Part shown: positions 1,108-53,594 of the stretch, one piece after another
Position numbering within the stretch: position 1 is the stretch's first letter
Layout of the letters: each line of letters begins with the position of its first letter
Assembly (NCBI GenBank): GCA_965261285.1
Contig: OZ253457.1
Span: 2,857,396-2,921,395, forward strand
Direction of reading: 5' to 3'
DNA length: 64,000 nucleotides
Source of the DNA: Vicinamibacterales bacterium
GTDB taxonomy: Bacteria; Acidobacteriota; Vicinamibacteria; Vicinamibacterales; UBA8438
Position numbers and translations under genes: made by a program
The notes under the pieces: model-generated
What the model saw: the letters and a program-made list of their open reading frames with translations, nothing else
What the model was told of the DNA's origin: nothing
The model's database searches: none

Positions 1108-1347
1108 CATGAGGCCACCGGGCAGCGGGTCGGGACGCCGCCTGCTCCAAAGCGGGCCACAGGTCCTCGATGGCGCGTCGCGGGCAGCATGAAGCCGCCG
1201 GTCGGCGGGTCAGGACGCCCCCTGCTCCAAGGCGGGCCACAGGTCGTCGATGGCGCGTCGCGGGCGGCATGAAGCCGCCGGTCGGCGGGTCAGGACGCTG
1301 CCTGCTCGGGGGCCGGGAACAGATCCTCGATGGAGCAGCCGAAGTAG
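1108..1347. repeat. 3 x 80-bp tandem echo of the 3' end of the XRE gene
   Basis: The anchor string catgaagccgccgg / catgaggccaccgg recurs at 1108, 1188 and 1268. The functional stop (tca, 1290) is echoed at 1210, and at 1130 it has decayed to tcg. Confidence 0.9.
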
Positions 1348-1562
1348 TTCGCGAACTTCCTCGCGTTGTCGACGGTGATGGTCTGATACCGGCAGCGCGC
1401 CACGTCGCTGACGTAGGGCTGCGGGAACCCCAGCGCCGCCGCCACGGCCCCCTGGGTCACGCCGGCGAGGGCAATCGCCTTGGCCACGCGGTTGCGGCCC
1501 GGCTCCTCGCGCAGGGCGGCGAGCTGTTGCGGCGTCAACATCGTGTCGAAAATATACGCCAT
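1290..1562 (-). CDS. XRE/Cro-like helix-turn-helix transcriptional regulator
   Basis: HTH core AKAIALAGVTQGAVAAALGFPQPYVSDVARCR. Start taken at Met15 of the 104-aa ORF. It is divergent to the CI-like gene. Confidence 0.8.
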   Translation of the reverse strand: MAYIFDTMLTPQQLAALREEPGRNRVAKAIALAGVTQGAVAAALGFPQPYVSDVARCRYQTITVDNARKFANYFGCSIEDLFPAPEQAAS

Positions 1563-1662
1563 GGGCCGTATCCGTGCAATCGTTATTCGCTCACGCGATA
1601 ACATGCTGACTCCATTGAACTACGTGTTTACACGTGTCGCGTCCATACGGTACCCTGACACC
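1563..1662. promoter_or_regulatory. divergent promoter/operator region of the Cro/CI-like pair
   Basis: Locally AT-richer spacer. It holds the near-palindrome gttattcgc-tcac-gcgataac (1582-1602), the palindrome acacgtgt (1630-1637) and the direct repeat acgtgt (1622, 1632). Confidence 0.4.
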
Positions 1663-2343
1663 GTGTCGCTGGGAGAGAACATCAAGCAGTTGCGCATGGC
1701 GGCGGGGATCTCGACCCAGAGGGCCCTGGCGGACCGGCTGCACGTCCCGCAGCCCCAGGTGTCCGACTGGGAGAACGACCGCTACGGGACCCTCGAGACG
1801 CAGACGCTGATGAAGCTGGCGAAGGTCCTCCGATGCACCATCGACCAGTTGCTGGACGGCGTCGACCCCGACTACGACCGGGTCCGCGAGGCGCGGGAGG
1901 CCGCCGACTTCCGGCCCGAACGCATCGACTACGGGACCGACGCGGCCGGCAGCATTCCGCTGGTGGCGGAAGGCTCGGCCGCGCCGGCGGGGATGCCCTG
2001 GACGGGCGCGGCCCCGCCGCCGGGCGAGATCGAGCGGTGGATACCGCGCCCCCGCGACGTGGAGGACCCGGGCGCCTACGGGGTCCACGTTCGCGGCGAC
2101 GCCATGGCGCCCGCGTACCCGCCGCACACCATCGCCATCGTCACCCCCGGCCGCCGCGTGCAGGACGGCGACGAGGCCTACGTGCAGCTCGCGCCGGACG
2201 AGCGGCTGATTCGGCTGGTGCGGAAGACGCGGGGCGGCTACCTGCTCGAATCGTACAACCACGCCTACCCGGCCCGCGTCGTGGCGCGCAGGGACGTGCT
2301 GTCGATGCACGTCATCCTCTACTCCCGCCGACGGGACTTCTGA
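1603..2343 (+). CDS. LexA/CI-like repressor (XRE HTH plus S24 peptidase-like domain with Ser-to-Ala in the catalytic motif)
   Basis: N-terminal HTH LGENIKQLRMAAGISTQRALADRLHVPQPQVSDWE. C-terminal S24-like VHVRGDAMAPAY ... ERLIRLVRK. Start is ATG 1603 or the in-frame GTG 1663. Confidence 0.85.
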   Translation: MLTPLNYVFTRVASIRYPDTVSLGENIKQLRMAAGISTQRALADRLHVPQPQVSDWENDRYGTLETQTLMKLAKVLRCTIDQLLDGVDPDYDRVREAREAADFRPERIDYGTDAAGSIPLVAEGSAAPAGMPWTGAAPPPGEIERWIPRPRDVEDPGAYGVHVRGDAMAPAYPPHTIAIVTPGRRVQDGDEAYVQLAPDERLIRLVRKTRGGYLLESYNHAYPARVVARRDVLSMHVILYSRRRDF

Positions 2344-2735
2344 CCGGCGCCGCCCGCGCTCCGCCGGCCGCACCCCTCGTCCGGCCGGGTGCACCTCGGA
2401 TTCCCGAGACGACGTACCTGCACGGTCGGGCCGGCGATTCCGGCGTAGTGTCCGGCGGTCTCGCTGCCTGGTCGTCCACCCCTGACGGCGGGTGCGCGAC
2501 AGGAAATGAGACCCCGCCGAGAACGACGTCGGAATCCCCGGCCCGACCGGTGCCGGACGGTCATCTCACGATGGTGCCGAGCACCCTGACGGCGCTCCGA
2601 TTTCGCTCGCCCCGCCAAGCCGATCTACGATTATCGGATCGACCCGCGAGGCGCGCAGGCTCCCGGAGGGCGGGAATGCGGCGGCCGCGGCAAGGGGCTC
2701 GATGGACTCGGCCGCCCCGAAGGAGAAACCGCGTG

Positions 2736-3731
2736 ATGAGTGAACGAGAGCCGCAGGCCAGCCCCGCGAGCGATTGGGTGTCGTACCGCCCCGAGATCAA
2801 GGTGCTCGACTGCACCATTCGGGACGGCGGCCTGATGAACGACCACCAGTTCGGCGACGAGACGGTGCGGGCGGTGTATCAGGCGTGCGTCGAGAGCGGC
2901 ATCGACTACATGGAGATCGGCTACATCAACTCGCGCCGGCAGTTTCCCTCGGGGCAGTTCGGCCCGTGGAAGCACTGCGTCGAGAGCGACGTCCGCCGCA
3001 TCGTCGGCGACAACGACACCGGCCTGAAGCTGTCGGCGATGGCCGACGCCGAGAAGAGCGACTACCGCGAGGACATCCTGCCGAAGTCCGAGAGCGTCCT
3101 CGACATGATTCGGGTCGCCACCTACATCCACCAGATCCCCCTCGCCCTCGACATGATCAAGCACGCCCACGACCAAGGCTACGAGACGAGCCTCAACCTG
3201 ATGGCGTTGTCGACGGTGCCCGACCGCGAGCTCAACGAGGCGCTGGCCCTGGTGGCGAAGTCGGAGGCCGACACGATCTGCATCGTCGACAGCTTCGGGG
3301 CGCTGTACGCCGAGCAGATCGACAGCTACATGGACACGTTCCTGGGCTACGCGGCCCCGGCCGGGAAGGCGGTGGGGATGCACGCCCACAACAACCGCCA
3401 GCTCGCGTTCGCCAACACCATCCAGGCGACCATCAAGGGCGCCAACCGGCTCGACGGGAGCATGGCGGGGCTGGGCCGCGGCGCCGGCAACTGCCCGATG
3501 GAGCTGCTGCTCAGCTTCCTGCACAACCCCAAGTTCCGCCTGCGCCCGGTGCTGCACTGCATCCAGCACCACATCGAGCCGATGCGCGAAGCGCTGAAGT
3601 GGGGCTTCGACTATCCCTACATGATGACCGGGGTGCTCAACCAGCACCCGCGGGCGGGGATGGCCTTCAACGAGTCGGAGGACCGCGGCGACATCATCAA
3701 GTTCTACGACTCGCTGGAAGACCCGGACTGA
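2736..3731 (+). CDS. HMGL-like / pyruvate carboxyltransferase-fold (DRE-TIM) aldolase family protein
   Basis: RBS aaggag lies upstream of ATG 2736. Motifs CTIRDGG, MHAHNN and GAGNCPME are present. The upstream 300 codons of the 632-aa ORF are Arg/Pro-rich GC artefact. Confidence 0.85.
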   Translation: MSEREPQASPASDWVSYRPEIKVLDCTIRDGGLMNDHQFGDETVRAVYQACVESGIDYMEIGYINSRRQFPSGQFGPWKHCVESDVRRIVGDNDTGLKLSAMADAEKSDYREDILPKSESVLDMIRVATYIHQIPLALDMIKHAHDQGYETSLNLMALSTVPDRELNEALALVAKSEADTICIVDSFGALYAEQIDSYMDTFLGYAAPAGKAVGMHAHNNRQLAFANTIQATIKGANRLDGSMAGLGRGAGNCPMELLLSFLHNPKFRLRPVLHCIQHHIEPMREALKWGFDYPYMMTGVLNQHPRAGMAFNESEDRGDIIKFYDSLEDPD

Positions 3732-3881: not shown

Positions 3882-3883
3882 GC

Positions 3884-4109
3884 GAAGGCCGCCGGCGGCG
3901 CCGCAACATCAAGGCTTGTCGGCGAGCAGGCCCCAGTGCCGCCCCGCCCGGTCGAGAATGGCCGGCAGGTCGTCGGGCCGGCAGGTAGCGGCCGGCGAAG
4001 GCCGCCGGCGGCGGCGCAGCATCAAGGCTTGTCGGCGAGCAGGTCCCAGTGCCGCCCCGCCCGGTCGAGGATGGCAGCCAAGTCGTCGGCCAGCAGGTAG
4101 CGGCCGGCG
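3884..4109. repeat. 2 x 113-bp tandem echo of the 3' end of the secreted hydrolase gene
   Basis: The unit gaaggccgccggcggcg...tcaaggcttgtcggcgagcagg starts at 3884 and 3997. Stop codons sit at 3909 (echo) and 4022 (functional). The echo still encodes DDLPAILDRAGRHWGLLADKP versus DDLAAILDRAGRHWDLLADKP. Confidence 0.9.
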
Positions 4110-5683
4110 ACCAGCGCGTGCCCGACCGCCTCGACCTTCTCCATGAACTCGCCGCGCGACGCGTAGCGCTCCTCGATGGACGGCCGCGGGTCGCCCGCCG
4201 CCTCGCGCTCGGCGCGGGTGGCCGCGAACGGCACGTAGGACCCGGCGAGGGCCACCAGCGTGTCGGGGTCGCCGGCGTCCGGGTGGGTGAAGTTCCACCC
4301 GGTGTAGGTGGCCAGGGGCACCGCCACCTCCGGGTGCACGATGCCGGAGGTTTCGTTGCCGTCGGCGTCGACGGCGGGCACGAGCATCGGCAGCGGCACC
4401 CCGGCGTCGTCGGCCCCGGCCAGCCACGGGTTCCTCACGCGCACGCCGCCGGTGCGGTCCTCGGGCGACCGCACGCCGGGGATGGCCGGAAACCCGAGGT
4501 CGCCCGGCGGCACGAGGTTGCCGTCGGCGAACCGGGGATGGCGGCTGGCGGGCGGCTCGACCCCGTCGACGACCCAGTCCTTCAGCGAGGTCAGCAGCGC
4601 CCGCATGTTCCACCAGTAGTCGGTGGGGTTGCCCATCTCCTGCCGGTTGCCCGGCTCGGGCGGCGGGAACGGGCCGGGACCGTGCTGGGTGCCGGCGAGC
4701 AGGTAGAAGCGCACGTTGTCCTGCAGGTCGATGTCGGCCTCGCCGTCCGGCGTGGCGTGCACGAGGGCGGTCACCCGGCCGCCGCCCCAGTACTCAACGC
4801 CGGTGTTGGTGTAGAGGATGCGGGGCTGGTTGTCCCGGCTGCGCTCGTTCCCGAGGGTGCCGTCGACGGCCCCCGTCACCGGGTCGCGGAGGGCGGCGTC
4901 GGCGAAGGGGAACGACGTGGCGTCGAACATGCCGAGCGAGATGGGGTTCGCGCCGGGCTGGTTGAGGTCGAGCCGCGACGCCCCCGCGATGTGCGGGATC
5001 ATGCCGTCGAAGACCCGCCGCCCCTCGGTGTCGGTGTTGAAGCCGAGGTAGAGGAACGTGCGCAGGAAGCGGCCGCTCTGCGACGAGCCGAACGACAGCG
5101 CGTGCCCGGCCGAGACGACGGCGTCGGGGTCGTGCTTGATCCACGATGCGGTGTCGCGCACGGCGGCGAAGCCGAGCCCGCCGACCGGGTCCCCGTCCAC
5201 CGAGGGCACGGCGAAGCGGATGGGACGGCCCTCGGGCACGTCGAACTCCCAGCCGACCCACACCACGGTGTAGCCCGCCTTCATGAGGAACCCGTCGCCG
5301 TACGGTCCGCTGCCGCCGCGGTTGAACCCGAGCGCGGTCAGGCGGCCGCGGTTGGCGATGTCCACCAGCACCACGCCGTTCCCGCGCTCGGGGTCGGCGG
5401 GGGCGAGGATGCGCAGGTCGCCGGTGGCCTCGACCAGGCCGTCCGCGTTGACGGGCGCGCGGTCGAGGTTGGCGATGACCTGGTTCCGCGGATCGGCGGG
5501 GTCGACGGCGAAGGTGATGCGGCCCGCGATCAGCTCGTAGGGGCCGGCGTCGCCGAACGCGCGGCCGTCCTCGATGAGGGCGCGTTCGGTGATCTCGACC
5601 GACGAGACGTCGGCCCGCGCCGCCGCCGGCGCGAGCAGAGCGAGGGTCAGAACGGTTGCAAGAAAACGGTACGTCGACTTCAT
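4022..5683 (-). CDS. secreted alpha/beta-hydrolase-domain protein (uncharacterised family)
   Basis: Signal peptide MKSTYRFLATVLTLALLAPAAARA. The N-terminus VSSVEITERA..FGDAGPYELIAGRITFAVDP resembles the secreted alpha/beta hydrolase domain family as I recall it. The ORF is coherent over 553 aa. Confidence 0.7.
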   Translation of the reverse strand: MKSTYRFLATVLTLALLAPAAARADVSSVEITERALIEDGRAFGDAGPYELIAGRITFAVDPADPRNQVIANLDRAPVNADGLVEATGDLRILAPADPERGNGVVLVDIANRGRLTALGFNRGGSGPYGDGFLMKAGYTVVWVGWEFDVPEGRPIRFAVPSVDGDPVGGLGFAAVRDTASWIKHDPDAVVSAGHALSFGSSQSGRFLRTFLYLGFNTDTEGRRVFDGMIPHIAGASRLDLNQPGANPISLGMFDATSFPFADAALRDPVTGAVDGTLGNERSRDNQPRILYTNTGVEYWGGGRVTALVHATPDGEADIDLQDNVRFYLLAGTQHGPGPFPPPEPGNRQEMGNPTDYWWNMRALLTSLKDWVVDGVEPPASRHPRFADGNLVPPGDLGFPAIPGVRSPEDRTGGVRVRNPWLAGADDAGVPLPMLVPAVDADGNETSGIVHPEVAVPLATYTGWNFTHPDAGDPDTLVALAGSYVPFAATRAEREAAGDPRPSIEERYASRGEFMEKVEAVGHALVAGRYLLADDLAAILDRAGRHWDLLADKP

Positions 5684-7385: not shown

Positions 7386-7470
7386 GCTCGGTGGGCTTCC
7401 CTCGCTCGTCGGGACTGGCCTGCCAATTCGTCGCCCGGGGGCTCCGCTAGGCACCCCATCCAATCCTACC

Positions 7471-7501
7471 GGAGTCCGCGCCGTTCTACCGCGCAGACTC
7501 C
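7471..7501. repeat. REP-like hairpin element (GGAGTCCGCGCC...GCGCAGAC family) containing the stop codon of the Rieske alpha gene
   Basis: ggagtccgcgccgttCTAccgcgcagactcc. The same motif occurs at 52377, 53461 and 53564, with a partial copy at 18461. Confidence 0.7.
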
Positions 7502-8835
7502 CGGTCGGCGGCCGCGGTCGGCTCCGGGGACGGGGCGGCTTCCGGGACCGCGCCGGGCGGCAGCCCCCGTTCGTACCGCTCGACGTGCGGTCTGCCCGTG
7601 ATGAGCGAGTGCCAGCGCCGCCAGAAGCTGCGCATCTGCAGCTCGTCGCTGCCCCGCGGCTCGCGGTGCATTCCCCGGGAGAGATCCGACCACTCGACGC
7701 CGCCCGAGCGGAATCCCTGCTGGCACGACTCGATGGCTTCGATGTCGTCCGGCGTGGCGAACCCGCCCGGCCCCAGGAAGGTCAGGAAGGAATCGAGGCG
7801 GCGGCGCAGCCTGACGCCGGCTTCTCCGGCGGGCGCCAGCTCCCACGCCGTCACGTCCATGCCGGCGGGGCCGGTGGGATGGAACGTCCGGATGGTGACG
7901 GCCATGATGTCGTTGACGACCAGATTGGGGAATATCACCAGGTTGCGGGTCTTCTCGCACATCCGCAGGGCCTTCTCGAGCCCGTGGCGGGCGACGATCT
8001 CCTCCTTGCTTCTCTCCATCTCGGCCTTGGCCTCCTCGCCGTAACTCGGATGCCACATGGCGATGGGCCGCCCGTAGACCGCGTCGTTCTCCATGACGCC
8101 GTGTCCGTTGCCGAGCGAACGGCCGACCCCCCGGCGGTTGCCGGCGGCCGTCGCGTCATCCCTGGCCGTGCCGGCCATGTAGTCGAAGAAGGTGCGGTGG
8201 GTGAACGGCGTATGGTAGCCGTCGACGCTGTTCTCGACCATCAGCTTCCAGTTGGCCTTGATGCTGTAGCGGTTCGAGCCGGGGATGACCCGCATGCCGC
8301 CGGGGTCCTGGTCGGCGACGAGGTCGAGGTACTCGGCGGCCCCGGCCAGGTACTCGCGCAGGGGTCCGGTCTCGCGGTCGAAGCAGACGAAGATGAAGCC
8401 GCGAAAGCTGTCGAAGCGCGGCGAACGCAGCCCCATCTCGCCGCGGTCGAAGTCCGGGCCGTAGCCCTCGACGTCGGGGACACCGATCAGCGCGCCCGAC
8501 GTGTCGAAGGTCCAGGCGTGGTAGAAGCACCGGAACGCCTCGGCGTTGCCGCGGTCCGTGCGGCAGACGAGGGCGCCCCGGTGGGGGCACGTGTTGTGGA
8601 ACACCGCCAGCTCGCCGTCCCGGGTGCGGGCGAAGAAAAGCGGGCGCTCGGCCACCACGCGCCGCGCGTAATCGCCGGGGTTCGGCACCTCCGATTCGTG
8701 CCCCAGGTAGAGCCAGCAGCGGTCGAAGATGCGCTGCCGCTCCAGCTCGTGGATCGCCGGCGACACCATGGCGGAGCGATGCACCCTGAACCTGCCCAGG
8801 TCGAGACGGTCGTAGACCAGACTGCCGACGTCCAT
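7486..8835 (-). CDS. Rieske [2Fe-2S] aromatic-ring-hydroxylating oxygenase alpha subunit
   Basis: Rieske motif CPHRG...CFYHAW, and a catalytic domain with NWKLMVENSVDGYH. Start MDVGSLVY at 8835. The N-terminal 580 codons of the 1034-aa ORF are artefact. Confidence 0.9.
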   Translation of the reverse strand: MDVGSLVYDRLDLGRFRVHRSAMVSPAIHELERQRIFDRCWLYLGHESEVPNPGDYARRVVAERPLFFARTRDGELAVFHNTCPHRGALVCRTDRGNAEAFRCFYHAWTFDTSGALIGVPDVEGYGPDFDRGEMGLRSPRFDSFRGFIFVCFDRETGPLREYLAGAAEYLDLVADQDPGGMRVIPGSNRYSIKANWKLMVENSVDGYHTPFTHRTFFDYMAGTARDDATAAGNRRGVGRSLGNGHGVMENDAVYGRPIAMWHPSYGEEAKAEMERSKEEIVARHGLEKALRMCEKTRNLVIFPNLVVNDIMAVTIRTFHPTGPAGMDVTAWELAPAGEAGVRLRRRLDSFLTFLGPGGFATPDDIEAIESCQQGFRSGGVEWSDLSRGMHREPRGSDELQMRSFWRRWHSLITGRPHVERYERGLPPGAVPEAAPSPEPTAAADRESAR

Positions 8836-8892
8836 GGCGCCTCCCTCTCCACCGGACCTCTTCACGCGTTCGCCTATGATAGGGCAGTCCAG

Positions 8893-17124: not shown

Positions 17125-17448
17125 ATGGGTGTGGTCTACCTGTTCGACTCACGAGGCAGTTGGATCGCCTTTCGGAACGGGAAGTACGTCTACGACTGCG
17201 ACGGAAACTGGATTGGCTGGCTTCCCTGGAACGACGAGGACGTCGTGGACCGGGATGGCGCGTACCTGGGCACCATCGTCAAGAAGAAGCGCTTGTACCG
17301 TCTCGCGGCTCGTCCATACCGTGGCTACCCCGGCTACCCCGGCTACCCCGACTACCCCGGTCACCCCGGCTACCCCTGCTATGCCGGTGACGATTCCCCC
17401 CCCTTCGACGCCGAGGACGTCAATCTGCACGAGATTCCCGGATCGTGA
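17125..17448 (+). CDS. small protein with a 4-fold-beta-flower-like N-terminus and a Y-P-G-rich tail
   Basis: VYLFDSRGSWIAFRNGKYVYDCDGNWIGWLPWNDEDVVDRDGAYLGTIV is followed by YRGYPGYPGYPDYPGHPGYP. Local GC is lower. Confidence 0.55.
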   Translation: MGVVYLFDSRGSWIAFRNGKYVYDCDGNWIGWLPWNDEDVVDRDGAYLGTIVKKKRLYRLAARPYRGYPGYPGYPDYPGHPGYPCYAGDDSPPFDAEDVNLHEIPGS

Positions 17449-37959: not shown

Positions 37960-38112
37960 GGAGCCCGGGCGAGGAACGACGCGGGCTTCCGGGCAGCGGC
38001 GTTCCTCGCGCCGGGACTTGCGGACCGGCGAACGTCACGACGCGACTGCAAGGACGTGCGGCAACCATTGGCGGACCAGGTGGACGGGGCGGAACGGCAG
38101 AGGAGCAGGGTG

Positions 38113-41100: not shown

Positions 41101-42177
41101 GAGGTGATGATGGCCAGGGGCCTCTCGCCCGCCGACGCCCGGCGCTACTCGACCCTGCGCGTCTTCGGCGGCGTGAACGGCAACTACGGCACCGCCATCA
41201 TGGGAATGGTCGAGAGCGGCGACCGCTGGGAGGAGGACTCGGAGGTGGCCGACCAGTACCTCCGCAACATGGGCGCCGTCTACGACGAGGGCGAGCTGTG
41301 GAGCTTCTACGCCGAGGGCATGTTCGAGGCGGCCCTCGCCGGCACCGAGATCGTCGTGCAGCCGCGGCAGAGCCACACCTGGGGGGCGCTGAGCCTCGAC
41401 CACGTCTACGAGTTCATGGGCGGGCTGAGCGCGGCCGTCCGCCACGTGACCGGCCGCGACGCCGACGCCTACTTCAACGACTTCCGCAACATGAACCGGC
41501 CGCGGGTGACGGACCTCGAGGAGACGATCTGGACCGAGGCGCGGTCGACGCTGCTGAACCCCGCCTACATCGGGGAGATGCAGGAGGGCGGCGCCTCGTC
41601 GGCCGAGCACTTCGCCGAGACGTTCCGCAACACCTACGGCTGGAACGTCATGAAGCCGGCCGCCATCGACGACGCGCTCTGGAACGAGCTGTACGAGGTG
41701 TACGTCGACGACCGCCACGACCTCGGGGTCCACGACTTCTTCCGGCGGGAGAACCCGTATGCCCTGCAGGAGATGACGGCGGTGATGCTGGAGACGGTGC
41801 GCAAGGGCCTGTGGGAGGCCACCGCGCAACAGGTGGCGGTGCTGGCGGAGCTGCACACCCGGCTGGTGGAGGAGTTCGAGGCGGGCTGCAGCGGCTTCGT
41901 CTGCGACAATGCGGCCCTGGCGTCGTTCATCGCCGAGCAGGCGCCGGCGGACCTCGCGGCGAGCTATCGGAGCGAGCTGCGGCAGGCGCTGACGACGAGC
42001 GTGGAGCTGGCCGAGGCGAGCGTGGTCCTGGCCGAGCAGGACGCGGAGCCGCGGCCGGCCGACGCGGCGGCGGCCCCGCCGACCCCGGCGCGCCTCGCGT
42101 GGCTGGGGGCGGCCCTCGCCGCGGGCCTCTTCGTGCTCGCGCTGCTCGTCCTGCGCCGGCGGCGGAGCACGACCTGA
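38113..42177 (+). CDS. CobN/Mg-chelatase-H-like giant protein 2 (about 1354 aa) with N- and C-terminal transmembrane anchors
   Basis: RBS gaggag with ATG 38113. It has the same CobN blocks as copy 1. N-terminus RRRTILLAVLALAAIGTAAGIY. C-terminus LGAALAAGLFVLALLVLRRRRSTT. It lacks about 220 aa of Ala/Asp/Arg-rich insert present in copy 1. Confidence 0.9.
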   Translation: MTEATRRTGTLLRLFGPAARRRTILLAVLALAAIGTAAGIYRHFLAPTRIAFVNFRGVQLARLERARGDQAVRIEPLALDALHRAASYPVVFVHGRGLELQETHIEQLREAGRRGSRLFVRGVSNPEHDVTNLGGRQLEHVGGYFRFGGTENYARLLNFSRAELDGKAFRSDPVQPPAERAMDVLFHLDDRLTFETVDAFRAHYEEQGLAKPGAPTIALLTSVPGPFNANRDHVDAIIEALEARQWNVFPIASNDKRLDFLQAIEPDLVVLMPHGRLSRGRSREAIAWLQERNIPMLTALSVFQNHDEWVADQQGMAGGLLTLSVVLPELDGGVAPYAVAAEFEDEYGYEIFDVIPERLEVFCDLVERWLALKATPNRDKRVAIYYYKGPGKNAMVASNMEVAPSLLNLLRTLRDAGYTVEGLPETEDEFWEIIQAQGPVLGPYARGAFEEYVAEGDPALVSAAQYAEWTEEHLEPAMREAVAAAYGPAPGEYMTVGSGDDDAIAVARAQFGNVVVLPQPMPGVGDDTFRLVHGTLEAPPHPYVASYLWTRRAFEADAVMHFGTHGSLEFRPWKQIALSSFDWSDALIGGIPHVYLYIMSNVGEGIIAKRRSYAATVTHLTPPFMEGGLYEGLRPLRDRLDRYRNTADGPVRAEHARTIRRLAADMDLHVDLGLDPEGAWSDDDYFRLSNHVETIDGAKVVQGFYTLGEAFNDDEIHGTAELMAIDPIAYGLARIDIAKGVAKSDILDDAALFERRYRQTARRAYARRAGGESVEAVLSDLVSPADLEQAHGESKLADPLLVLKAGVAGVDRHRKGLRDSSDLELESVARGLAGGYVEPTPGGDPIVNPDAVPTGRNLFSIDAEQTPSREAWTVGRRLAESLLDEHRRRHDAWPRKVAFTLWPTDFIGTEGATIGQIFYLLGVEPVWDPRGRVGDLRLIPSADLGRPRIDVVVQTAGQLRDLAASRLALINRAVAMAAEARDAETNFVQEGRLRAEEVMMARGLSPADARRYSTLRVFGGVNGNYGTAIMGMVESGDRWEEDSEVADQYLRNMGAVYDEGELWSFYAEGMFEAALAGTEIVVQPRQSHTWGALSLDHVYEFMGGLSAAVRHVTGRDADAYFNDFRNMNRPRVTDLEETIWTEARSTLLNPAYIGEMQEGGASSAEHFAETFRNTYGWNVMKPAAIDDALWNELYEVYVDDRHDLGVHDFFRRENPYALQEMTAVMLETVRKGLWEATAQQVAVLAELHTRLVEEFEAGCSGFVCDNAALASFIAEQAPADLAASYRSELRQALTTSVELAEASVVLAEQDAEPRPADAAAAPPTPARLAWLGAALAAGLFVLALLVLRRRRSTT
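40541..42177. repeat. 1.64-kb dispersed repeat (copy 2), partner of 30696-32332
   Basis: See copy 1. The offset is a constant 9845 nt. Confidence 0.85.
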
Positions 42178-42440
42178 CGCCCGGAAGCCATGGAGGCGGT
42201 ACTCGACGTCGTCGCCGGAACCGGCGTGGTCCTGCTCCCGTTGCTCGCGCTGCTCGTCCTGCGCCGACGGCAGAGCACGACCTGACGCGTGGAAGCCATG
42301 GAGGCGGTACTCGACGTCGTCGCGGGAACCGGCGTGGTGCTGCTCGCGCAGCTCGTCCTGCGAAGGCGGCGGAGCACGACCTGACGCGTGGAAGCCATGG
42401 AGGCGGTACTCGACGTCGTCGCCGGAACCGGCGTGGTCCT
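42140..42440. repeat. 3-unit tandem echo (108 and 99 bp) spanning the CobN-like 2 stop and the start of the next gene
   Basis: TGA occurs at 42175, 42283 and 42382. ATGGAGGCGGTACTCGAC occurs at 42190, 42298 and 42397. The two upstream copies form in-frame chimeric mini-ORFs of 31 and 28 aa. Confidence 0.9.
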
Positions 42441-43089
42441 GCTCCTGCTGGCGGCGGCGTCCGTCGACCGGCGGTGGGCGCGGGGGCTGGCCGTGGCCGC
42501 GGTCGCCGCCGCCGTCTACGCCCTGCACCCGCTCGCGGTGCGTCAGAGCCTGACCGCGTTCGTCGGCGGGCTCGACGGCGCCGGCGTCCAGACGCTGGCC
42601 GCCCTGCTCGCGTTCGACGGCGTGCTCGGCTGCGGCGGAGTCGCCCTCCTGCTCGGGGCCCGGCACGGCCGGCGGCTGCGCTGGTTCGAGCGGCTGGCGG
42701 CGCGCCACGTCGGGATCATCCCCGCGCCGGCCCTGTTCTACGTGGAGGTGAAGGCGTTCCACGCGGCGTCGGGGTGGACCTTCTCGACCACCGCGCTCGC
42801 GCTGTGCCTCGCCGTCGTCGTCGCGGGCATGGGCGGCAGCGAGGCGATTCGGCGGCTGCTGCCGGACCGGGACCTCCGGGCCGAGCTGCGCCTGCTCGTG
42901 CACGTCGGGCAGGTGGTGCTCGCGGCCGGACTGACCGCGTTCGCGCTGCAGGGGGGAGTTCGGAGCCCCGGGGCCGCGGTCGAGGCCGGGCCCCTCGCCG
43001 TCGTCGCCGCCGCCGCGGCCCTCGGCATCCTCGCCGGCTACTGGAGCCATCGCCGGCGCCTGCGCCGCCTCGCGGACCTGGGACGATGA
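42397..43089 (+). CDS. polytopic inner-membrane protein, unknown family
   Basis: MEAVLDVVAGTGVVLLLLAAA... It has several hydrophobic helices and ends WSHRRRLRRLADLGR. I recognised no motif. Confidence 0.6.
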   Translation: MEAVLDVVAGTGVVLLLLAAASVDRRWARGLAVAAVAAAVYALHPLAVRQSLTAFVGGLDGAGVQTLAALLAFDGVLGCGGVALLLGARHGRRLRWFERLAARHVGIIPAPALFYVEVKAFHAASGWTFSTTALALCLAVVVAGMGGSEAIRRLLPDRDLRAELRLLVHVGQVVLAAGLTAFALQGGVRSPGAAVEAGPLAVVAAAAALGILAGYWSHRRRLRRLADLGR

Positions 43090-43313
43090 TCGAAACAAGG
43101 CTGCCGACTTCGCCCACCCGCGGCCCGTATTCTGAGATTCCCCGCGCTTGGCGTGGGCGGGTAGCTTCCGTCAAGCGTCCTGGGACAGTGCCCGATACAG
43201 GATTGCCGACCTCAACCGAACGCAGCCTGTTGGCGTGGGCGGGTAGCTTCCGTCAAGCGTCCTGGGACAGTGCCCGATACAGGATTGCCGACCTCAACCG
43301 AACGCAGCCTGTT
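43068..43313. repeat. tandem echo of the membrane-protein gene 3' end; the last two 82-bp units are identical
   Basis: Units 43150-43231 and 43232-43313 are identical on reading. They align with decay to the functional end (gcggacctgggacgatgatcgaaacaaggctgccgac versus gcgtcctgggacagtgcccgatacaggattgccgac). Confidence 0.85.
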
Positions 43314-43330
43314 CCCTGCGGGCTGCTGCA

Positions 43331-43482
43331 CCTGGCGCCCGGCAAATGATCTCCGTCGACATCCCTGAACCATGGAGCCGCTGACTCGCGCCCTGTACCT
43401 GCTCTACCTGGCGCCCGGCCAGATGCTCTCCGTCGACATCCCTGAACCATGGAGCTGCTGACACGCGCCCTGTACCTGCTGT
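43331..43482. repeat. 2 x 76-bp tandem duplication of the 5' end of the exbB-like gene
   Basis: cctggcgcccggc...ccctgaaccATGGAG occurs at 43331 and 43407. The upstream ATG (43373) opens a 29-codon uORF that stops 9 nt past the real ATG 43449. Confidence 0.85.
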
Positions 43483-44099
43483 CGACCGGCCTGCTCGTGC
43501 CGGTCATCGTCGTGCTGCTGATTCTCTTCGGCCGGTCGCTGCTGCTCGTCGGGCGCACCTACGGTGCCTGGTTGTCGCGGCTTCGCTTCCGGGCCGCGCT
43601 GCGGCCGCTGCTCGACCGGCTCGACCGCGGCAACGTGGAGGCGGTGCTGCGGGACGCCGACCTCCCCCCCGAGCCGCGGTGGGCGCCGGCCATCGGGCGC
43701 CTGCTCGACCACGGCGCCTCGGCGGCGCAACGCGAGAAGGTGCTCGCCGACTTCGAGGCCGGCTGCGAGACCGATCTCGCGCCGGCGCGGACCATGGCGC
43801 GGCTGGGCCCGATGCTCGGCCTGATGGGCACCCTCATCCCGATGGGCCCCGCCCTCGTCGGACTGGCCGCCGGCGACATCGTGGCGATGGCCGAGAACCT
43901 GCAGGTCGCCTTCTCGACCACCGTCGTGGGGCTCTTCGTCGGGGGCATCGGCTTCGCCGTCCAGCAGGCGAAGCAGCGTTGGCACACCGAGGCGCTCAAC
44001 GATCTCGAGTTCGTGAGCGGCCTCGTCGGCGAGCGGGCGGGCGCGCCCGAAGAGGGGGCGGTTGCCCCCCCGGCCATGCGGCGTTCCGCGCGGGCGTGA
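43449..44099 (+). CDS. MotA/TolQ/ExbB proton-channel family protein
   Basis: LARLGPMLGLMGTLIPMGPALVGLAAGD...LQVAFSTTVVGLFVGGIGFAVQ is the conserved channel core. Confidence 0.85.
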   Translation: MELLTRALYLLSTGLLVPVIVVLLILFGRSLLLVGRTYGAWLSRLRFRAALRPLLDRLDRGNVEAVLRDADLPPEPRWAPAIGRLLDHGASAAQREKVLADFEAGCETDLAPARTMARLGPMLGLMGTLIPMGPALVGLAAGDIVAMAENLQVAFSTTVVGLFVGGIGFAVQQAKQRWHTEALNDLEFVSGLVGERAGAPEEGAVAPPAMRRSARA

Positions 44100-48650: not shown

Positions 48651-49247
48651 ATGGTGAAACCGGTTCGAGCCATCGACTGGGCGGAGACGACGACCTCCGA
48701 GAGCGAGCTGGCGGAGCGGTGCGCAGCCGGCGATGCACAGGCCTGCCGCGAGCTCGTCCAGGGCCATCAGCGGATGGTGTACCACCTGGCGCTGAACCTG
48801 CTCGGCAATTCCGAGGACGCCCGCGACCTGTCGCAGGACGTGTTCCTCACGGTGTTCCGCTCGATTCACCGGTTCCGCGGCGACTCCGCCCTGCAGACCT
48901 GGATCTACCGCATCGTGGTCAACCAGGCCCGCAACCAGCAGCGCTGGTGGCGCCGCCGCAAGCGGGCCGACCAGGTGTCGCTGGAGGCGGTGTTCGTGGA
49001 CCCGCCGGCGCCGGCGGCGACGACGTCGCCCGAGCGCGCCCTCGACCGGAAGGAGCTGCGCCGGCGGCTGTGGGGCGCCCTCGAGCGCCTGCCGTTCGAG
49101 CAGCGGTCGGCCGTCGTGCTGCGCGAGCTGCACGGCATGCGGTACGCGGAGATCGCCTTCTCGCTCGGCGTCTCGACCGCCGCGGTGAAGTCACGACTGG
49201 CGCGCGCACGTCAGACCCTGCGCGCAGAACTGAGGCACATCCGATGA
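48651..49247 (+). CDS. ECF (sigma-70 family, group 4) RNA polymerase sigma factor
   Basis: RBS gggagg. Region 2 is DLSQDVFLTVFRSIHRFRGDSALQTWIYRIVVNQARN. Region 4 is LRELHGMRYAEIAFSLGVSTAAVKSRLARAR. Confidence 0.9.
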   Translation: MVKPVRAIDWAETTTSESELAERCAAGDAQACRELVQGHQRMVYHLALNLLGNSEDARDLSQDVFLTVFRSIHRFRGDSALQTWIYRIVVNQARNQQRWWRRRKRADQVSLEAVFVDPPAPAATTSPERALDRKELRRRLWGALERLPFEQRSAVVLRELHGMRYAEIAFSLGVSTAAVKSRLARARQTLRAELRHIR

Positions 49248-50152
49248 CTGGTTCGAGATCGCTCCGTTGCCGCACCGCGCGTCAATGGCTGACCGCGTCC
49301 CACGACGGCGAGCTCCCGGTGGCGCGGCAGGTGACGCTGGACGCGCACCTGGACGACTGCGCCGACTGCCGCCGCCTCCGGCACGACCTGACCGCCATCA
49401 GCGACGCCCTGCGCGAGCACGCCACCGAGCACCGCCCCGACGAGCTGGCGTGCGCCGGACTGGCGTCGAGCGTGCTCGAGTCCCTGCCCGCCGGGTCCTG
49501 CCGGCCCCTGCCCCGCCGGCTCGGCGAGGTCGTCGCGGACGGACAGCGCCTGTGCGTGATGGGCGGCGTGATCGCCTCGATGCTCGTGGCGGGCCTGTTC
49601 GCGGCCATGGCCCTGAGCTTCTCGCCCCCCGTCCATCCGCACTCCCTGTCCGGGTTCCTGCAGGGGGCGAACCGACTCGGGTCGAACGCCAACCCGCTGC
49701 GCGGGTTCGAGACCGGCGTCAGCCTGCCCCACGTGTCGGCGGACACCCAGGCCGCGGCCATGCTGATTCGGCCGCTTCCGCCGCTCGTGCTGGAGAACCT
49801 GGCGCTGGCCGCGGTGGTGACCCGCGAGGGGGAGCTCGCGTCGGTCGAGGTGCTCGGCCAGCGGTCGGCCGGCGCCCGGAACGTCGGCGGCAGAAACGCC
49901 GCGCAGGCGACGGAGGACCGCGATGCCGCCGGCGCCGCCGGGCCGGACGCGGAACTCCGGCGGGCGCTGTCGCGCCTCGCGTCGGACGTGCGCTTCGTGC
50001 CTGCCCGCGCCGGAGGCGCCCCGGTGGCCGTCAACGTCGTCTGGCTGCTCGAGCGCACGACGGTGCTGCCCGGCGCCCCTCGGACCCAGAGCCAATCGGG
50101 CGCTCCCGACGCCGGGCATCCGATCCGCCTGCCGGCCAGCCGTACCGCATGA
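49244..50152 (+). CDS. anti-sigma factor (zf-HC2 type), single-pass
   Basis: ATGA overlap with the sigma gene. HLDDCADCRRL zinc-finger motif. TM segment VMGGVIASMLVAGLFAAMAL. Confidence 0.75.
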   Translation: MTGSRSLRCRTARQWLTASHDGELPVARQVTLDAHLDDCADCRRLRHDLTAISDALREHATEHRPDELACAGLASSVLESLPAGSCRPLPRRLGEVVADGQRLCVMGGVIASMLVAGLFAAMALSFSPPVHPHSLSGFLQGANRLGSNANPLRGFETGVSLPHVSADTQAAAMLIRPLPPLVLENLALAAVVTREGELASVEVLGQRSAGARNVGGRNAAQATEDRDAAGAAGPDAELRRALSRLASDVRFVPARAGGAPVAVNVVWLLERTTVLPGAPRTQSQSGAPDAGHPIRLPASRTA

Positions 50153-50320
50153 GGTCCGCGCGGCGCCACAGACCCCACCCCTGCCGCCCGGCGGGCTGCC
50201 GGCCAGCCATCCCGCGTGAGGGTCCGCGCCGCGCCACAGCCCCCAACGCCTCCTCCCGGGCGGCCTGCCGGCAGCCATCCGCGTGAGGTCCGCTTCGCGC
50301 CGCATACCCCAACGGCTCTC
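50120..50320. repeat. 3 x 67-bp tandem echo of the anti-sigma gene 3' end
   Basis: TGA occurs at 50150 (functional), 50217 and 50284. Each is preceded by ctgccggc(c)agcc and followed by ggtccgcg... Confidence 0.9.
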
Positions 50321-50423
50321 CAAGCGGACCCGCCCGGGACGGCTGCCCGACCGAGGGCTCGCGCCCGCGGAGTCTCGGCGTCTCGCGCCCGCGCGACTCG
50401 CGGACCGCGCGTCGCGCTGGACG

Positions 50424-50882: not shown

Positions 50883-51018
50883 CGTCCTTCTCCTGACTGT
50901 CGAATCCGGCCGCCGGGTCCCGCGCTGCCGTTCGCCCGGGAATCGTCGCCGGCGGCGCCCAATCGCCGTCCTGCCGGTCGTGCCGCCAGTCGTCCGCGCC
51001 GTTCGACGGCGCGGGCGG

Positions 51019-52122: not shown

Positions 52123-52376
52123 CTTCTCAACCTCCCGATAATCGTCACCGCAGAAGCTACAGGTCCAGAGACTCCCGAACGCGACCACGAGATGGCCCCG
52201 CGGCCTTCGGCGTCGGCCCGATCGATCCTCCGGCCGTCTCCGCCGCTACGTGCATTCACCGTACAGGAACTCACGCCCAGGAGCTCGCGCCGGCGAACTC
52301 TCGGCGCGACCACGGGCCGCCGGCTCGCCCGCCAATCGTCGCCTGCGACTCCGCTTGGCGCCCAACCAACCCTCCA

Positions 52377-52406
52377 GGAGTCCGCGCCGTTCCATACGGC
52401 GCAGAC
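52377..52406. repeat. REP-like hairpin element abutting the stop codon of 52409-53251
   Basis: In ggagtccgcgccgttccatacggcgcagac, the stem gtccgcgccgt/acggcgcagac has one G-U position. Confidence 0.7.
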
Positions 52407-52408
52407 GC

Positions 52409-53251
52409 CTAGCGCGGCAGCGGCTCGCGGCGCCACTCGCCGAACATCAGCTCCTCGACGAACTCCACGCAGCGGAAGTCCATCAGCCGGGCGTTCTCCT
52501 CGATGCGGCGGTAGATCGGCATCTTGATGGTGAACGGCTCGGTCAGCACCGCCGGGTCCTCGATCGTCGCCTCGTAGTCGATGTGGTTCGGCCCCAGCAT
52601 GGTGTAGCGCTCCACCACGCGGAGCTGGTTGCTGTGGTGGCTGCCCGCCCGGTCGAACCAGGTACCGTCGTGGAGCCCGGTCACCTCGACGACCAGCGTG
52701 TCCCCCTCCCAGCTTCCGACCGACCATCCCATCCACGAGTCGATCTGCGAGGGCCCGGGGTCGTCCAGGTAGATGTCGCGCACGGCCCCCGCGAACTGGT
52801 AGGCGATGAAGAAGTCCTCCTCGCTCTGGACGATCTGGAACGGCATGGGGAGGTAGGTGGCGCGCGGGACCCCCGGCAGGTAGCACTTGACCTCGGGGTC
52901 GCGGTCGATCCAGTTGGCGCGGTTCTCCTCCTTGAGGGCGCGCGCCTCCTCGGTGTAGGGAATCCGGCCGCCGCCGACGATGACCCCGAGGCTCCCCGGC
53001 ACCGCGCCGACCGCCCCGAGGCGCAGCGTCGGAATCGCCGGCACCGGGTTCACGGGTCCCGGGCGCATCTGCATCGAGTGCCGGGCCATGTGCGGCTCGA
53101 GGTCGTAGTTGGCCTCGTTCAGCACCTGCCAGATGCCGCTCATGTCGGGAAGGCCGTTCGAGAGCCGCGGTATGCCGTCCTGCGCCTGAACCGGCGCCGC
53201 CGCGCCGAACAGTCCCAGGGCCACCGTCAGTGCAACGGACGTCGTCTTCAT
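52409..53251 (-). CDS. secreted protein distantly related to paralog family A (copy 4, divergent)
   Basis: Signal peptide MKTTSVALTVALGLFGAAAPVQAQ. Shares PDMSGIW, GSWEGDTLVVEVTG and VVERYTM..., but lacks the ACHEGN block. Confidence 0.7.
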   Translation of the reverse strand: MKTTSVALTVALGLFGAAAPVQAQDGIPRLSNGLPDMSGIWQVLNEANYDLEPHMARHSMQMRPGPVNPVPAIPTLRLGAVGAVPGSLGVIVGGGRIPYTEEARALKEENRANWIDRDPEVKCYLPGVPRATYLPMPFQIVQSEEDFFIAYQFAGAVRDIYLDDPGPSQIDSWMGWSVGSWEGDTLVVEVTGLHDGTWFDRAGSHHSNQLRVVERYTMLGPNHIDYEATIEDPAVLTEPFTIKMPIYRRIEENARLMDFRCVEFVEELMFGEWRREPLPR

Positions 53252-53388
53252 CTAGTCACCACTCCAGGAATCGCCGCGGCCCGCCGGGCACGGCGAGAGT
53301 CATGCGGCACGCACTATTCTAACCGGCTCCCGCGGCAACGACACAGCGTCGTCTCGCGCGGTCCGGGACCGATGGGGGGGAATCGACC

Positions 53389-53594
53389 GGCCCGCCCCGC
53401 GTCGCCGAACGCGACCGCAGGTCGCGCCGCGGCCTCCGCCGGGCGCCAACCCATCCTACAGGAGTCCGCGCCGTTCCCGGCGCAGACCCTGGCCCGCCCC
53501 GCGTAGCCGAACGCGACCGCAGGTCGCGCTGCGGCCTCTGCCGGGCGCCCAACCGACCCTGCAGGAGCCCGCGCCCTTACGCGGCGCATACCCC
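53389..53594. repeat. 2 x 102-bp tandem intergenic unit ending at the LysM gene stop; each carries two hairpins
   Basis: ggcccgccccgcgt occurs at 53389 and 53491. Each unit has a gcgacc-gca-ggtcgc hairpin and a REP-like ggag(t/c)ccgcgcc...gcgca(g/t)ac element (53461, 53564). Confidence 0.85.

Follow-up and report, generated by a model that had tools for sequence, protein, structure and literature searches.

Why do gene boundaries in a soil bacterium of the Vicinamibacterales (Acidobacteriota) carry tandem copies of the end of the preceding gene? The question was raised by a sequence-only reading of one 64-kb stretch of the genome (hereafter, the window), which placed such arrays at ten sites. 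We compared the window with close relatives, about 185 kb in total, whose loci are designated below by L numbers. The gene-tail arrays look like the outcome of ordinary duplication and selection proceeding at an unusually high rate, and not like a new genetic system. Since 64 kb of the genome and about 185 kb of relatives are covered, a genome-wide claim is an extrapolation; extrapolated in this way, about one gene boundary in five would be stretched by recent tandem duplications of gene tails, 60-125 bp in size.

Genes were called from codon usage with Pfam support, and the start codons are approximate. Tandem arrays were called by TRF, supplemented by an ungapped echo scan and a junction self-alignment test. 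The size scan for local arrays spanned 30-320 bp, the array counts for the window and the control loci refer to arrays with a period of at least 40, and the scan for intrinsic terminators covered 31-51 kb of the window.

The arrays and their units

All ten arrays are present, with periods of 66-113 bp and 2-4 copies; neighbouring copies within an array are 81-100% identical. Seven of them (A1-A6 and A8) are echoes of gene 3' ends, which contain the last 10-26 codons, the stop codon and the downstream spacer; the description of all ten as gene-end echoes applies to these and fails for A7a, A7b and A9. The unit translations correspond to the C-terminus of the adjoining gene, and units of different arrays are mutually unrelated, the two CobN paralogues excepted. 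The derivation of each array from its own local gene stands for the seven and for A7b, and has to be dropped for A9 and A7a.

Three of the echoes lie on the minus strand. A1 (1107..1346) consists of three 80-bp units (TRF 1107-1333, 80 bp x 2.8). The HTH/XRE gene 1290..1604 contributes its final ~19 codons and TGA to the gene-attached unit (1267-1346), in which the hairpin CCGCCGACCGGCGG comes next; beyond this unit lie two echoes, the first of which retains the TGA. A2 (3882..4110), at a convergent junction, has two 113-bp units (TRF 113 x 2.0), each composed of the 3' end of the alpha/beta-hydrolase gene 4022..5683 (26 codons and the TGA) and a hairpin. A3 (21423..21699) has two units of ~112 bp at the 3' end of the ABC ATPase gene 21655..22410, from which they take ~12 C-terminal codons and the TAG; they continue through the entire spacer as far as the ribosome-binding site of the next gene. 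It falls under the TRF threshold and was detected by the ungapped echo scan, by junction self-alignment (z = 31) and by eye; its second unit is split by an insert of ~105 nt (21456-21565).

The other four are on the plus strand. A4 (32285..32569; TRF 32285-32566, 96 x 3.0) has three units of 96, 96 and 93 bp, each made up of 15 C-terminal codons and the TGA of the CobN-like gene 27545..32332, the hairpin GCGCGCCGACCGTCGGCGC and the next gene's leader. That gene, a Kelch/PQQ beta-propeller gene (32582..34867), is itself followed by A5 (34810..35090; TRF 34823-35085, 70/66 x 4), where four units of 66-75 bp contain its last 15-19 codons and TGA and a spacer of ~22 nt. A6 (42134..42459; TRF 42134-42453, 99/108 x 3.1) lies between the second CobN-like gene (38056..42177) and gene X (42388..43089). 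Its three units, of 108, 99 and 108 bp, join ~14 C-terminal codons and the TGA of the former, across a spacer of 13 nt, to 16 N-terminal codons of the latter; the internal units each form an intact mini-ORF of 28-31 codons. A8 (50127..50330; TRF 50127-50318, 68 x 2.9), at a convergent junction, echoes the end of gene 49244..50152, which has an ECF sigma factor gene upstream of it. The three ~68-bp units of the array run from the final ~8 codons through the TGA into the spacer, and the TGA is retained in both echoes.

The two arrays between gene X and exbB, also on the plus strand, had been taken for copies of gene ends. The one placed at 43068 actually starts at 43148 and copies no gene end: A7a (43148..43313) is wholly intergenic, 82 bp x 2.0 with 100% identity (TRF), and sits in an insert (43090..43330) whose source was not found by BLAST against all loci. 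The one placed at 43331, A7b (43323..43480; two 77-bp units, TRF 77 x 2.1), copies the 5' leader, the ATG and the first 9 codons of the downstream exbB (43449..44099), and is the sole array with a start codon and without a stop codon.

The first echo often keeps its stop codon, as had been noticed (A1, A2, A3, A5, A6 and A8); neither the echoes nor their stop codons are in the reading frame of the parent gene. The statement that the gene-attached copy is intact and the distal ones decayed holds roughly. The exception is A2, in which the distal echo has the ancestral DDLPAILD (as in L087-L089) and the gene copy has DDLAAILD.

Arrays were also said to fill most spacers between co-directional genes, which overstates their number: they occupy 9 of the 44 gene junctions, namely, 7 of 33 co-directional, 2 of 5 convergent and none of 6 divergent ones. 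Self-similarity reaches z = 17-80 at nine of the 44, is weak at one (z = 6), and remains at the null level at the others. The window contains 10 arrays against 2 in four GC-matched control regions (200 kb, 69-71% GC), i.e., about 14 times the control density; a further 1.15 Mb of unrelated loci contains 6. Within the window the arrays are enriched at stop codons, with 8 of the 10 covering or abutting one compared to 1.6 expected for random placement (P < 5e-5).

Comparison with relatives

Relatives that are 84-97% identical to the window have compact single-copy junctions at its array sites and arrays of their own at other junctions, which indicates that the duplication process is recent, ongoing and enriched in the clade. 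The arrays arose locally and recently, from junctions that were ancestrally compact, and they turn over.

In alignment, the orthologues of A1 are single-copy in L087, L088, L089 and L091. The same is true of the A2 site in L087, L088, L089 and L090 (the L087 spacer is 67 nt), of the A4 junction between CobN1 and the propeller gene in L003 (about 75 nt), of the A5 site in L003 and L004 (45 nt in L004), and of the A6 site in L004 and L005, the spacer from CobN2 to gene X being 13 nt in L004. The A3 echo is absent in L104 and L105, and the L105 spacer is 112 nt. The insert carrying A7a occurs only in the window and in the strain-level contig L001, where A7a is single-copy; A7b is found in L001 and absent in L002 and L005, in which the stop of gene X and the start of exbB are 3-6 nt apart. 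The 108/99 structure of A6 is common to the window and the independent assemblies L001 and L002. A8 has three copies in the window and two at the same place in L002.

Independent events in the relatives include 79 bp x 3.4 at the exbB end in L002 (compared to ~1.2 copies in the window), 82 bp x 2 across the overlapping permease and symporter genes in L088, and 106 bp x 1.9 in L105; gene-end echoes also occur in L089, L003, L005 and L006. The copy number of a 94-bp array appears to differ between the strains L093 and L094, and the array sets differ between genomes 93-97% identical.

The number of local arrays per 10 kb is 1.4 in the window, ~0.5 in the relatives 84-97% identical, and ~0.1 in distant relatives (60-65% GC) and controls. 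The conjectured lineage-specific quirk is thus supported in the sense of lineage enrichment. Even genomes 91-97% identical vary in density, with no such arrays in L087 and L104 (21 kb each).

For A6, the identity between the window and L002 is 94% in the gene-end copy, 91% in the non-functional middle copy and 99% in the gene-start copy, and the array mismatches are unbiased. Judging from such sequence comparisons, the echoes decay roughly like neutral DNA.

A dispersed element of about 95 nt

The arrays were described as neither CRISPR-like nor a dispersed mobile element. They are indeed not CRISPR-like, and 8-9 of the 10 are not dispersed; A9 is the exception. It comprises two 102-bp units (53389..53593, minus strand; TRF 102 x 2.0), whose start lies immediately past the TAG of the LysM gene 53595..55448. 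We considered A9 as a local gene-end echo and rejected this, as no codons are copied in it; it consists of two tandem copies of a dispersed ~95-nt element, which recurs in the window and nine other loci at sites that are not orthologous. A9 is also present in L002, and tandem pairs of the same family occur in L002, L088 and L104.

Three further copies are on the minus strand of the window. A single copy (52322..52411; nhmmer E = 2.6e-20) starts at the TAG of gene 52409..53251. Another (7412..7503) has in its hairpin loop the TAG of the Rieske-oxygenase alpha subunit gene 7486..8865, and an orthologous copy is found in L087 at 8165-8250. A diverged copy (22539..22626; E = 9e-12) lies between genes 22645..22914 and 21655..22410.

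The element is located directly 3' of genes, in the orientation of the genes, singly or in tandem clusters. Its GC-rich hairpin is preceded by GTAG in 3 of 17 aligned copies (L002a, L105 and L002d) and by CTAG or TTAG in 3 more. A second helix is conserved with compensatory changes, and the G-U wobble pairs in the aligned sequences point to a structure at the RNA level. We presume a resemblance to REP/BIME elements, with which it would share the GC-rich hairpin, the GTAG-like lead, the position 3' of genes and the single or clustered occurrence. It differs from REP in its greater length and the conserved second helix, and no RAYT gene was seen.

Origin of the arrays

We believe that the arrays probably result from recurrent illegitimate or microhomology-mediated tandem duplication followed by slippage, with survival only across gene boundaries. 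Segments of ~60-125 bp would be tandemly duplicated unusually often in this genus-level clade, the end of the segment being joined to its own start with 0-6 nt of microhomology. Likely routes would be template switching or flap mis-annealing in replication, or else fill-in and end-joining at a break. A duplication within a gene would break it; one spanning a boundary would leave an intact copy of each flanking gene and could persist. Since the latter persist, the survivors look like echoes of the last codons, stop codon and downstream spacer, and where the ancestral spacer is only a few bases, the echo extends into the 5' codons of the next gene. Once two copies are in place, slippage or unequal exchange adds and removes copies as in a VNTR, and non-functional copies decay more or less neutrally until they are deleted or unrecognisable. 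The net effect is new intergenic DNA, with packed or overlapping operon genes pulled apart; the comparison of genomes shows these last three steps, whereas we infer the chemistry of duplication and that selection helps to decide where arrays lie. The periods of repeats inside genes are divisible by three (201 bp and 30/90 bp in the LysM gene; 21, 24 and 27 bp elsewhere), i.e., in-gene duplications survive only in frame.

Microhomology at the new joints, which had been anticipated, amounts to 0-6 nt: 6 nt in A6 (CTGCTC), 4 nt in A5 (CGTC), about 4 nt in A2 (TCGC), 2 nt in A7a (TT) and about 0 in the L088 event. The last two joints are the youngest, and their 0-2 nt is below the working definition of microhomology-mediated tandem duplication (MTD), at least 4 bp.

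Duplication leaves the inserts 43090-43330 and 21456-21565 unaccounted for. The best reading also leaves unexplained the 62-123 bp range, the 3'-end bias and the uneven density among close relatives.

If mutation were uniform and filtered by selection, start-only and stop-only arrays should be about equally frequent and no characteristic size would be expected; the counts of 1 and 12 (binomial p about 0.003) and the sizes of all 18 local arrays (62-123 bp, with control repeats reaching 288 bp) speak against this. It is tempting to propose a mutational hotspot at gene 3' ends: as transcription terminates there, replication could be stalled by RNA polymerase pausing, R-loops or GC-rich hairpins, with template switching or breaks as the result, and position would reflect the mechanism and not survival. 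Such a hotspot can coexist with the duplication proposed above, and we regard it as possible though rather doubtful. It agrees with the stop-only excess, with the presence of arrays at convergent and their absence at divergent junctions, and with the size range, which suggests a physical length scale. GC-rich hairpins are found in A1, A2, A4, A5 and A9, in the first four just past the stop; however, no clear one was found in A6, A7a, A7b or A8, the scan of 31-51 kb listed no array hairpin as an intrinsic terminator, and the junctions in which A6 and the L088 event originated had a 13-nt spacer or overlapping genes, all of which leaves the proposed nucleation at terminator hairpins unsupported. 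Moreover, the breakpoints are unanchored relative to the stop codon (the left one is 30-80 nt before it, the right one 19-60 nt after), A7b is a 5'-end duplication, A7a is purely intergenic, and in-frame duplications do occur within the LysM gene. The same bias could also arise if duplicated promoters, ribosome-binding sites and starts were selected against.

The retention of arrays as useful, whether as stacked terminators or back-up stops (an explanation offered earlier), as translation-uncoupling spacers or as sources of small membrane peptides, appears improbable to us. The stop codon in many first echoes, the strong hairpins in some units and the A6 mini-ORFs, intact in both the window and L002, would favour it; yet these mini-ORFs stay open without selection because the A6 periods are multiples of three, among the A6 copies it is the non-functional one that differs most between genomes, and the echo stop codons are out of frame. 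Compact junctions suffice for close relatives at every examined site, and genomes as close as 93-97% vary in their arrays. We attach very little weight to mobile or dispersed repeats (REP/BIME-, MITE- or MIRU-like) or template repeats of a diversity-generating retroelement as the general source: the ~95-nt family with A9 is of this kind, and the unit sizes are near those of MIRUs (40-100 bp; PMC3184786), but by BLAST the A1-A8 units match only their own gene end and orthologous gene ends. An adenine-specific mismatch pattern is absent, the Pfam matches of the 30 window proteins scanned include no reverse transcriptase or transposase, and Rfam gave zero matches. An assembly artefact is hardly credible. 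The perfect duplication A7a occurs only in the window, and A1, A2 and A3 are without a confirming independent assembly; however, copies differ by 7-19%, beyond what mis-assembly yields, and independent assemblies reproduce A6 (L001 and L002), A7b (L001), and A8 and A9 (L002).

The duplication proposed here is close to MTD, which has been put forward as a general origin of tandem repeats, bacteria included, and linked to Okazaki-flap processing (bioRxiv 10.64898/2026.02.28.708716). In both cases a single-copy segment (10-500 bp in MTD) is duplicated and can expand to a multi-copy array, and the duplications can revert and arise repeatedly at many loci. In the window, three older joints have 4-6 nt of microhomology. 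Unlike MTD, the youngest two joints have less, the sizes are limited to 62-123 bp, and the fixed events concentrate at gene 3' ends at the density given above. The youngest events, A7a and L088, are similar to primase/polymerase fill-in duplications at double-strand breaks in eukaryotes, which span tens of bp with little or no microhomology (PMC8355091), and bacterial NHEJ polymerases act on 3' overhangs (PMC3898472); we would take this likeness as an analogy of mechanism only. A published survey found repeats to be commoner just downstream of stops and upstream of starts than in genes, which agrees with our data; it is a broad statistical trend, and gene-tail echoes, their recent origin and the clade-specific excess are not described there. 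MIRUs of the Mycobacterium tuberculosis complex (PMC3184786, PMC2734929) form a single dispersed family whose ~40-50 related members may owe their spread to transposition, unlike A1-A8, each of which comes from a local gene end and shares no sequence with the others; only A9 and its relatives are dispersed-like. As MIRU-VNTR loci, the MIRUs nevertheless share much with the window: tandem units of 40-100 bp between co-directional operon genes, spacers of hundreds of bp in one lineage and 1-6 bp in relatives, polymorphic copy number, and small ORFs in the units that overlap the ends of neighbouring genes.

Tandem arrays at gene boundaries

The array feature at gene boundaries is real and statistically strong. 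All ten tandem arrays claimed by the sequence-only reading were recovered: nine by Tandem Repeats Finder (TRF) and the tenth, at 21423, by an ungapped echo scan and a junction self-alignment test (an "echo" is a tandem re-copy of the last codons of a gene, its stop codon and the downstream spacer). The units are head-to-tail according to TRF, the repeat families and the echo scan. Self-alignment of the 44 junctions gave z = 17-80 for nine and z = 6 for one, with all others at shuffle level; the scores are bimodal, and no decayed older arrays were found by self-similarity in the remaining 34 spacers. The 64-kb window (72% G+C) has 10 arrays with a period of at least 40 bp; GC-matched controls (69-71% G+C) have 2 over 200 kb, and unrelated loci 6 over 1.15 Mb. 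In more distant relatives (60-65% G+C) the density is ~0.1 arrays per 10 kb. For local arrays the comparison of 9 in 64 kb with 2 in 200 kb gives p ~1e-4 (conditional binomial, by hand). The suggested enrichment at stop codons was borne out in the window, where a stop codon lies inside or next to eight of the ten arrays and random placement predicts 1.6. The arrays do not, as had been claimed, occupy most spacers between co-directional genes: they are found at 7/33 co-directional, 2/5 convergent and 0/6 divergent junctions.

Seven arrays are gene-tail echoes: A1 (HTH/XRE gene), A2 (alpha/beta-hydrolase), A3 (ABC ATPase), A4 (CobN1), A5 (propeller), A6 (CobN2-gene X) and A8 (50127..50330, gene 49244..50152). 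Translation of their units gives the C-terminus, the stop codon and then the downstream spacer. The units of A6 also hold the first 16 codons of gene X, because the ancestral spacer was just 13 nt; they combine a gene end with a gene start, and the internal units are therefore small in-frame ORFs in which an N-terminus from gene X is joined to a C-terminus from CobN. The claim that every array copies a gene end thus holds for A1-A6 and A8 and fails for the others: A7b (43323-43480) repeats the exbB leader and its first 9 codons, A7a (43148-43313) is a perfect 82-bp duplication within an insert, and A9 (53389..53593) starts just past the stop codon of its neighbour and copies no codons.

The insert containing A7a (43090-43330, ~240 bp, of lower G+C) lies between gene X and exbB and is confined to the window and the strain-level contig L001; at the same site L002 and L005 have a gap of 3-6 nt. 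It moved the gene X stop codon by 4 codons, and BLAST against all loci gave no source sequence. Another insert, of ~105 nt (21456-21565), splits the second unit of A3.

It had been proposed that the copy attached to the gene stays intact and the distal copies decay. In A2 the reverse is observed, since the ancestral codons are kept in the distal echo and the gene's own copy has changed. Between A6 of the window and of L002, the copy with the real start of gene X is 99% identical, the copy with the real CobN end 94%, and the purely non-functional middle copy 91%.

Age and turnover of the arrays among relatives

With ExbB as the query, a scan of species-representative genomes assigned the window to Vicinamibacterales (phylum Acidobacteriota) and gave its first relatives (protein identity is 95% for L002 and 88-90% for L003-L006); others were gathered by searching with proteins and looking up contigs. 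At the nucleotide level, the identity with the window is 95-99% for L001, 93-97% for L104, 93% for L002, 91% for L087, 90% for L088, 87-94% for L105, 87% for L003, 86% for L089 and 84% for L004.

The proposed comparison of orthologous loci shows a compact single-copy state in relatives for every junction with an outgroup. A single-copy progenitor of each of A1-A7 exists among L002-L005, L087-L091, L104 and L105; for A8 and A9 the sole comparison is L002. In L004 the junction of CobN2 and gene X is 13 nt and that of the propeller gene and the next gene 45 nt; gene X and exbB are 3-6 nt apart in both L002 and L005, and CobN1 and the propeller gene ~75 nt apart in L003. The hydrolase 3' end is followed by 67 nt in L087, the HTH gene end is single copy in L087-L091, and so is the ABC ATPase end in L104 and L105. 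Because relatives keep single-copy junctions, A1, A2, A3 and A7 must postdate the divergence from genomes that are 91-97% identical. The window, L001 and L002 have A6 in common, and the identical 108/99-bp structure in all three excludes an assembly artefact for this array.

Copy number also varies: A7a has 2 copies in the window and 1 in L001; A8 has 3 and L002 has 2; the array at the exbB end has 1.2 copies in the window and is 79 bp x 3.4 in L002; and two strains, L093 and L094, apparently differ in the copy number of a 94-bp array. Relatives have arrays of their own: 106 bp x 1.9 in L105, and 82 bp x 2 in L088, which spans an overlapping permease/symporter junction. Shorter gene-end echoes occur in L003, L005, L006 and L089; no arrays were found in L087 and L104 (21 kb each). 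Should the feature prove genome-wide, the arrays are ready VNTR markers for strain typing in abundant uncultured soil bacteria. They can also mislead gene callers, which have already annotated 30-codon ORFs inside them (5457..5549 in the L088 array).

A tandem duplication of ~19 bp (TGAGCCCATGGAGCT twice) crosses the gene X-exbB junction in L004 (9960-10010), where there are no large arrays. Small duplications at junctions may thus arise as well and slip past the scans.

Possible origin of the arrays

The arrays appear to work like minisatellites derived from microhomology-mediated tandem duplication (MTD). They match a duplication-derived minisatellite or VNTR in the head-to-tail units, in the single-copy progenitor of relatives and in the variable copy number. 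They resemble MIRU-VNTR in size, in location at operon junctions and in lineage-specific growth of spacers (PMC2734929, PMC3184786), but differ in that each derives from its own gene end. For A1-A8 a MIRU-like dispersed repeat is rejected: apart from one another, the units match nothing but orthologous gene ends, and dispersal holds for A9 only. The view that each array is non-dispersed and comes from its own local gene is retained for the tails A1-A6 and A8 and for A7b, and abandoned for A9, which is dispersed, and for A7a, which lies within an insert. That the arrays are not CRISPR-like is confirmed, as the units are contiguous without spacers and the copies 81-100% identical. A diversity-generating retroelement is also discarded, considering that the 129 mismatches between neighbouring copies span most substitution types and show no adenine bias; no reverse transcriptase domain is among the Pfam matches of the 30 window proteins scanned. 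Structured RNA is rejected for the units: folding z-scores are mostly within +/-1.8 (the exceptions, one A4 unit at -2.9 and one A9 unit at -3.7, have strong hairpins). Rfam gave no match at the gathering threshold over the whole window. Stacked terminators were another suggestion; a scan of 31001-51000 for intrinsic terminators (a GC-rich hairpin with a T run) found 3 terminator-like sites against 3.8 expected from shuffles, none of them within an array, and lists no array hairpin, which gives this explanation no support. We found no literature on tandem repeats in Vicinamibacteria or on gene-tail echoes; prokaryotic tandem repeats are generally enriched in intergenic DNA (PMC12418385).

The proposed inspection of the joints gave a microhomology of 0-6 nt. 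Exact measurement is limited to A7a (2 nt) and L088 (~0), since later substitutions have obscured the older joints; A4 is within 0-2 nt, and A2, A5 and A6 have 4-6 nt. The arm that defines MTD is at least 4 bp long, and these values fall on both sides of it. Nucleation at hairpins, which had also been proposed, is not supported: the breakpoints are not anchored to hairpins, and several events arose at sites without any.

The most economical account would consist of three steps: frequent illegitimate or microhomology-mediated tandem duplication, then VNTR-like expansion and contraction, with survival of only those duplications that span a gene boundary. MTD was recently proposed as the general origin of tandem repeats (bioRxiv 10.64898/2026.02.28.708716). 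The three-step account is in keeping with duplications inside genes persisting only when in frame; TRF gives in-gene periods of 201 bp and 30/90 bp in the LysM gene and of 21, 24 and 27 bp elsewhere. The LysM-gene repeats arose by recent duplication inside the gene and persisted because they keep the reading frame.

For the most part the mechanism is an ordinary one; three oddities in the numbers (size, end bias and density) are left unexplained by the three-step account. All 18 local arrays of the clade have a period of 62-123 bp, though the scan covers 30-320 bp; control repeat periods spread to 288 bp (p ~2e-4, hypergeometric, by hand). These arrays include a stop codon without a start in 12 cases, both in 4, a start only in 1 and neither in 1. 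The size range, the end bias and the uneven density leave room for a clade-specific mutational process or a transcription-termination hotspot. A further reading, which we consider rather unlikely, is a process peculiar to the clade by which stretches of fixed length (~60-125 bp) are duplicated in tandem, using hardly any microhomology or none and favouring gene 3' ends. Behind it could lie altered Okazaki-flap processing, fill-in by a primase/polymerase at breaks, or replication stalling tied to transcription termination. At the observed rate such a process would continually supply new intergenic DNA, pull overlapping genes apart and give rise to mini-ORFs.

If the feature proves genome-wide, intergenic spacers are seen being born in a bacterial lineage, with junctions of 3-13 nt or overlapping ones turned into spacers of 200-360 bp while the genomes remain 93-97% identical. 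The lineage would then offer a natural test of what tandem duplication, deletion and selection at gene boundaries do to operon architecture and to translational coupling. A comparison of array-rich with array-poor sister genomes could expose a repair or replication gene that sets the rate of short duplication.

Several repeats were noted within coding regions. Within the LysM-domain gene (53595..55448), an in-frame 201-bp unit is repeated 3-4 times at 53766-54368 (90-93% identical), and a linker repeat of 30 bp x 6.7 (90 bp x 2) lies at 54329-54528. The TonB-dependent receptor gene (23066..25441) has a 21-bp x 4.7 repeat at 23857-23951, 96% identical, and its orthologue in L104 a 42-nt-offset repeat at 7293-7415. 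A 9-bp x 6.6 repeat (GGCTACCCC) is found at 17323-17381 within the small ORF 17125..17448.

A dispersed element and the neighbouring genes

A unit similar to A9 sits at a different junction in the closest relative, L104. A profile search gave five copies of this ~95-nt element in the window, all on the minus strand: 53595-53506 and 53489-53405 (both part of A9), 52411-52322, 7503-7412 and 22626-22539; a weak match is at 50931-51014. The element also occurs, singly or as tandem pairs, in L002, L005, L006, L087-L090, L104 and L105, and is missing from more distant relatives and controls, so that it is seen only in close Vicinamibacterales relatives. A9 is therefore a cluster of the dispersed element and not a local echo, and this applies equally to the L002 and L088 tandem pairs.

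The window copies have the orientation of the flanking genes and begin at or just past the stop codon upstream of them, which is often TAG; one copy has this codon in its hairpin loop. Conservation of the 12-bp hairpin is seen in 93.6% of cells being paired and in several G-U wobble substitutions, the second helix has compensatory changes at 4/6 pairs, and overall 89.5% of cells are paired against ~41% in slid controls. In a check for the conserved tetranucleotide of REP type, YTAG or GTAG was found 5' of the hairpin in 6/17 copies. Rfam gave no match, with only chance-level matches at a permissive threshold over 52.2-53.7 kb. The element may be REP/BIME-like or a new cis-acting RNA motif.

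Three paralogous genes without a Pfam match, 5727-6734, 47077-48204 and 51019-52188 (all on the minus strand), have blocks of 61-82% nucleotide identity (families D6, D9, D12, D14 and D17), and gene 52409..53251 has one weaker block in common with them. At least two of these genes adjoin copies of the element.

According to Pfam, the window genes include a TonB-dependent receptor, ExbB/ExbD, two CobN-like chelatases, ABC transporters and PQQ-type propellers. The gene calls come from a codon-usage model for which ORFs with Pfam support were the training set, and the start codons are approximate; an exact look-up of proteins 52409..53251 and 1290..1604 gave no record, probably because their start codons differ from the deposited calls. 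Gene X had a single distant match in a metagenome scan. The two CobN/Mg-chelatase-like paralogues (27545-32332 and 38056-42177) each have a hydrophobic stretch and then RRRRS(T) at the end, have segments up to 93% identical near the 3' end (30673-30972 vs 40518-40817), and are clustered with the TonB-dependent receptor and exbB/exbD. Gene order around CobN varies: in L003 the propeller gene directly precedes gene X, and L004 has one CobN-like gene within the stretch examined.

A divergent pair at 1290-2343 consists of a small HTH/XRE gene and an HTH + peptidase S24 (LexA/CI-like) gene, possibly a prophage remnant's regulatory module. The corresponding L087 stretches are 13058-14113 and 17756-18913, and a phage-type integrase gene is found there at a distance of ~4 kb.
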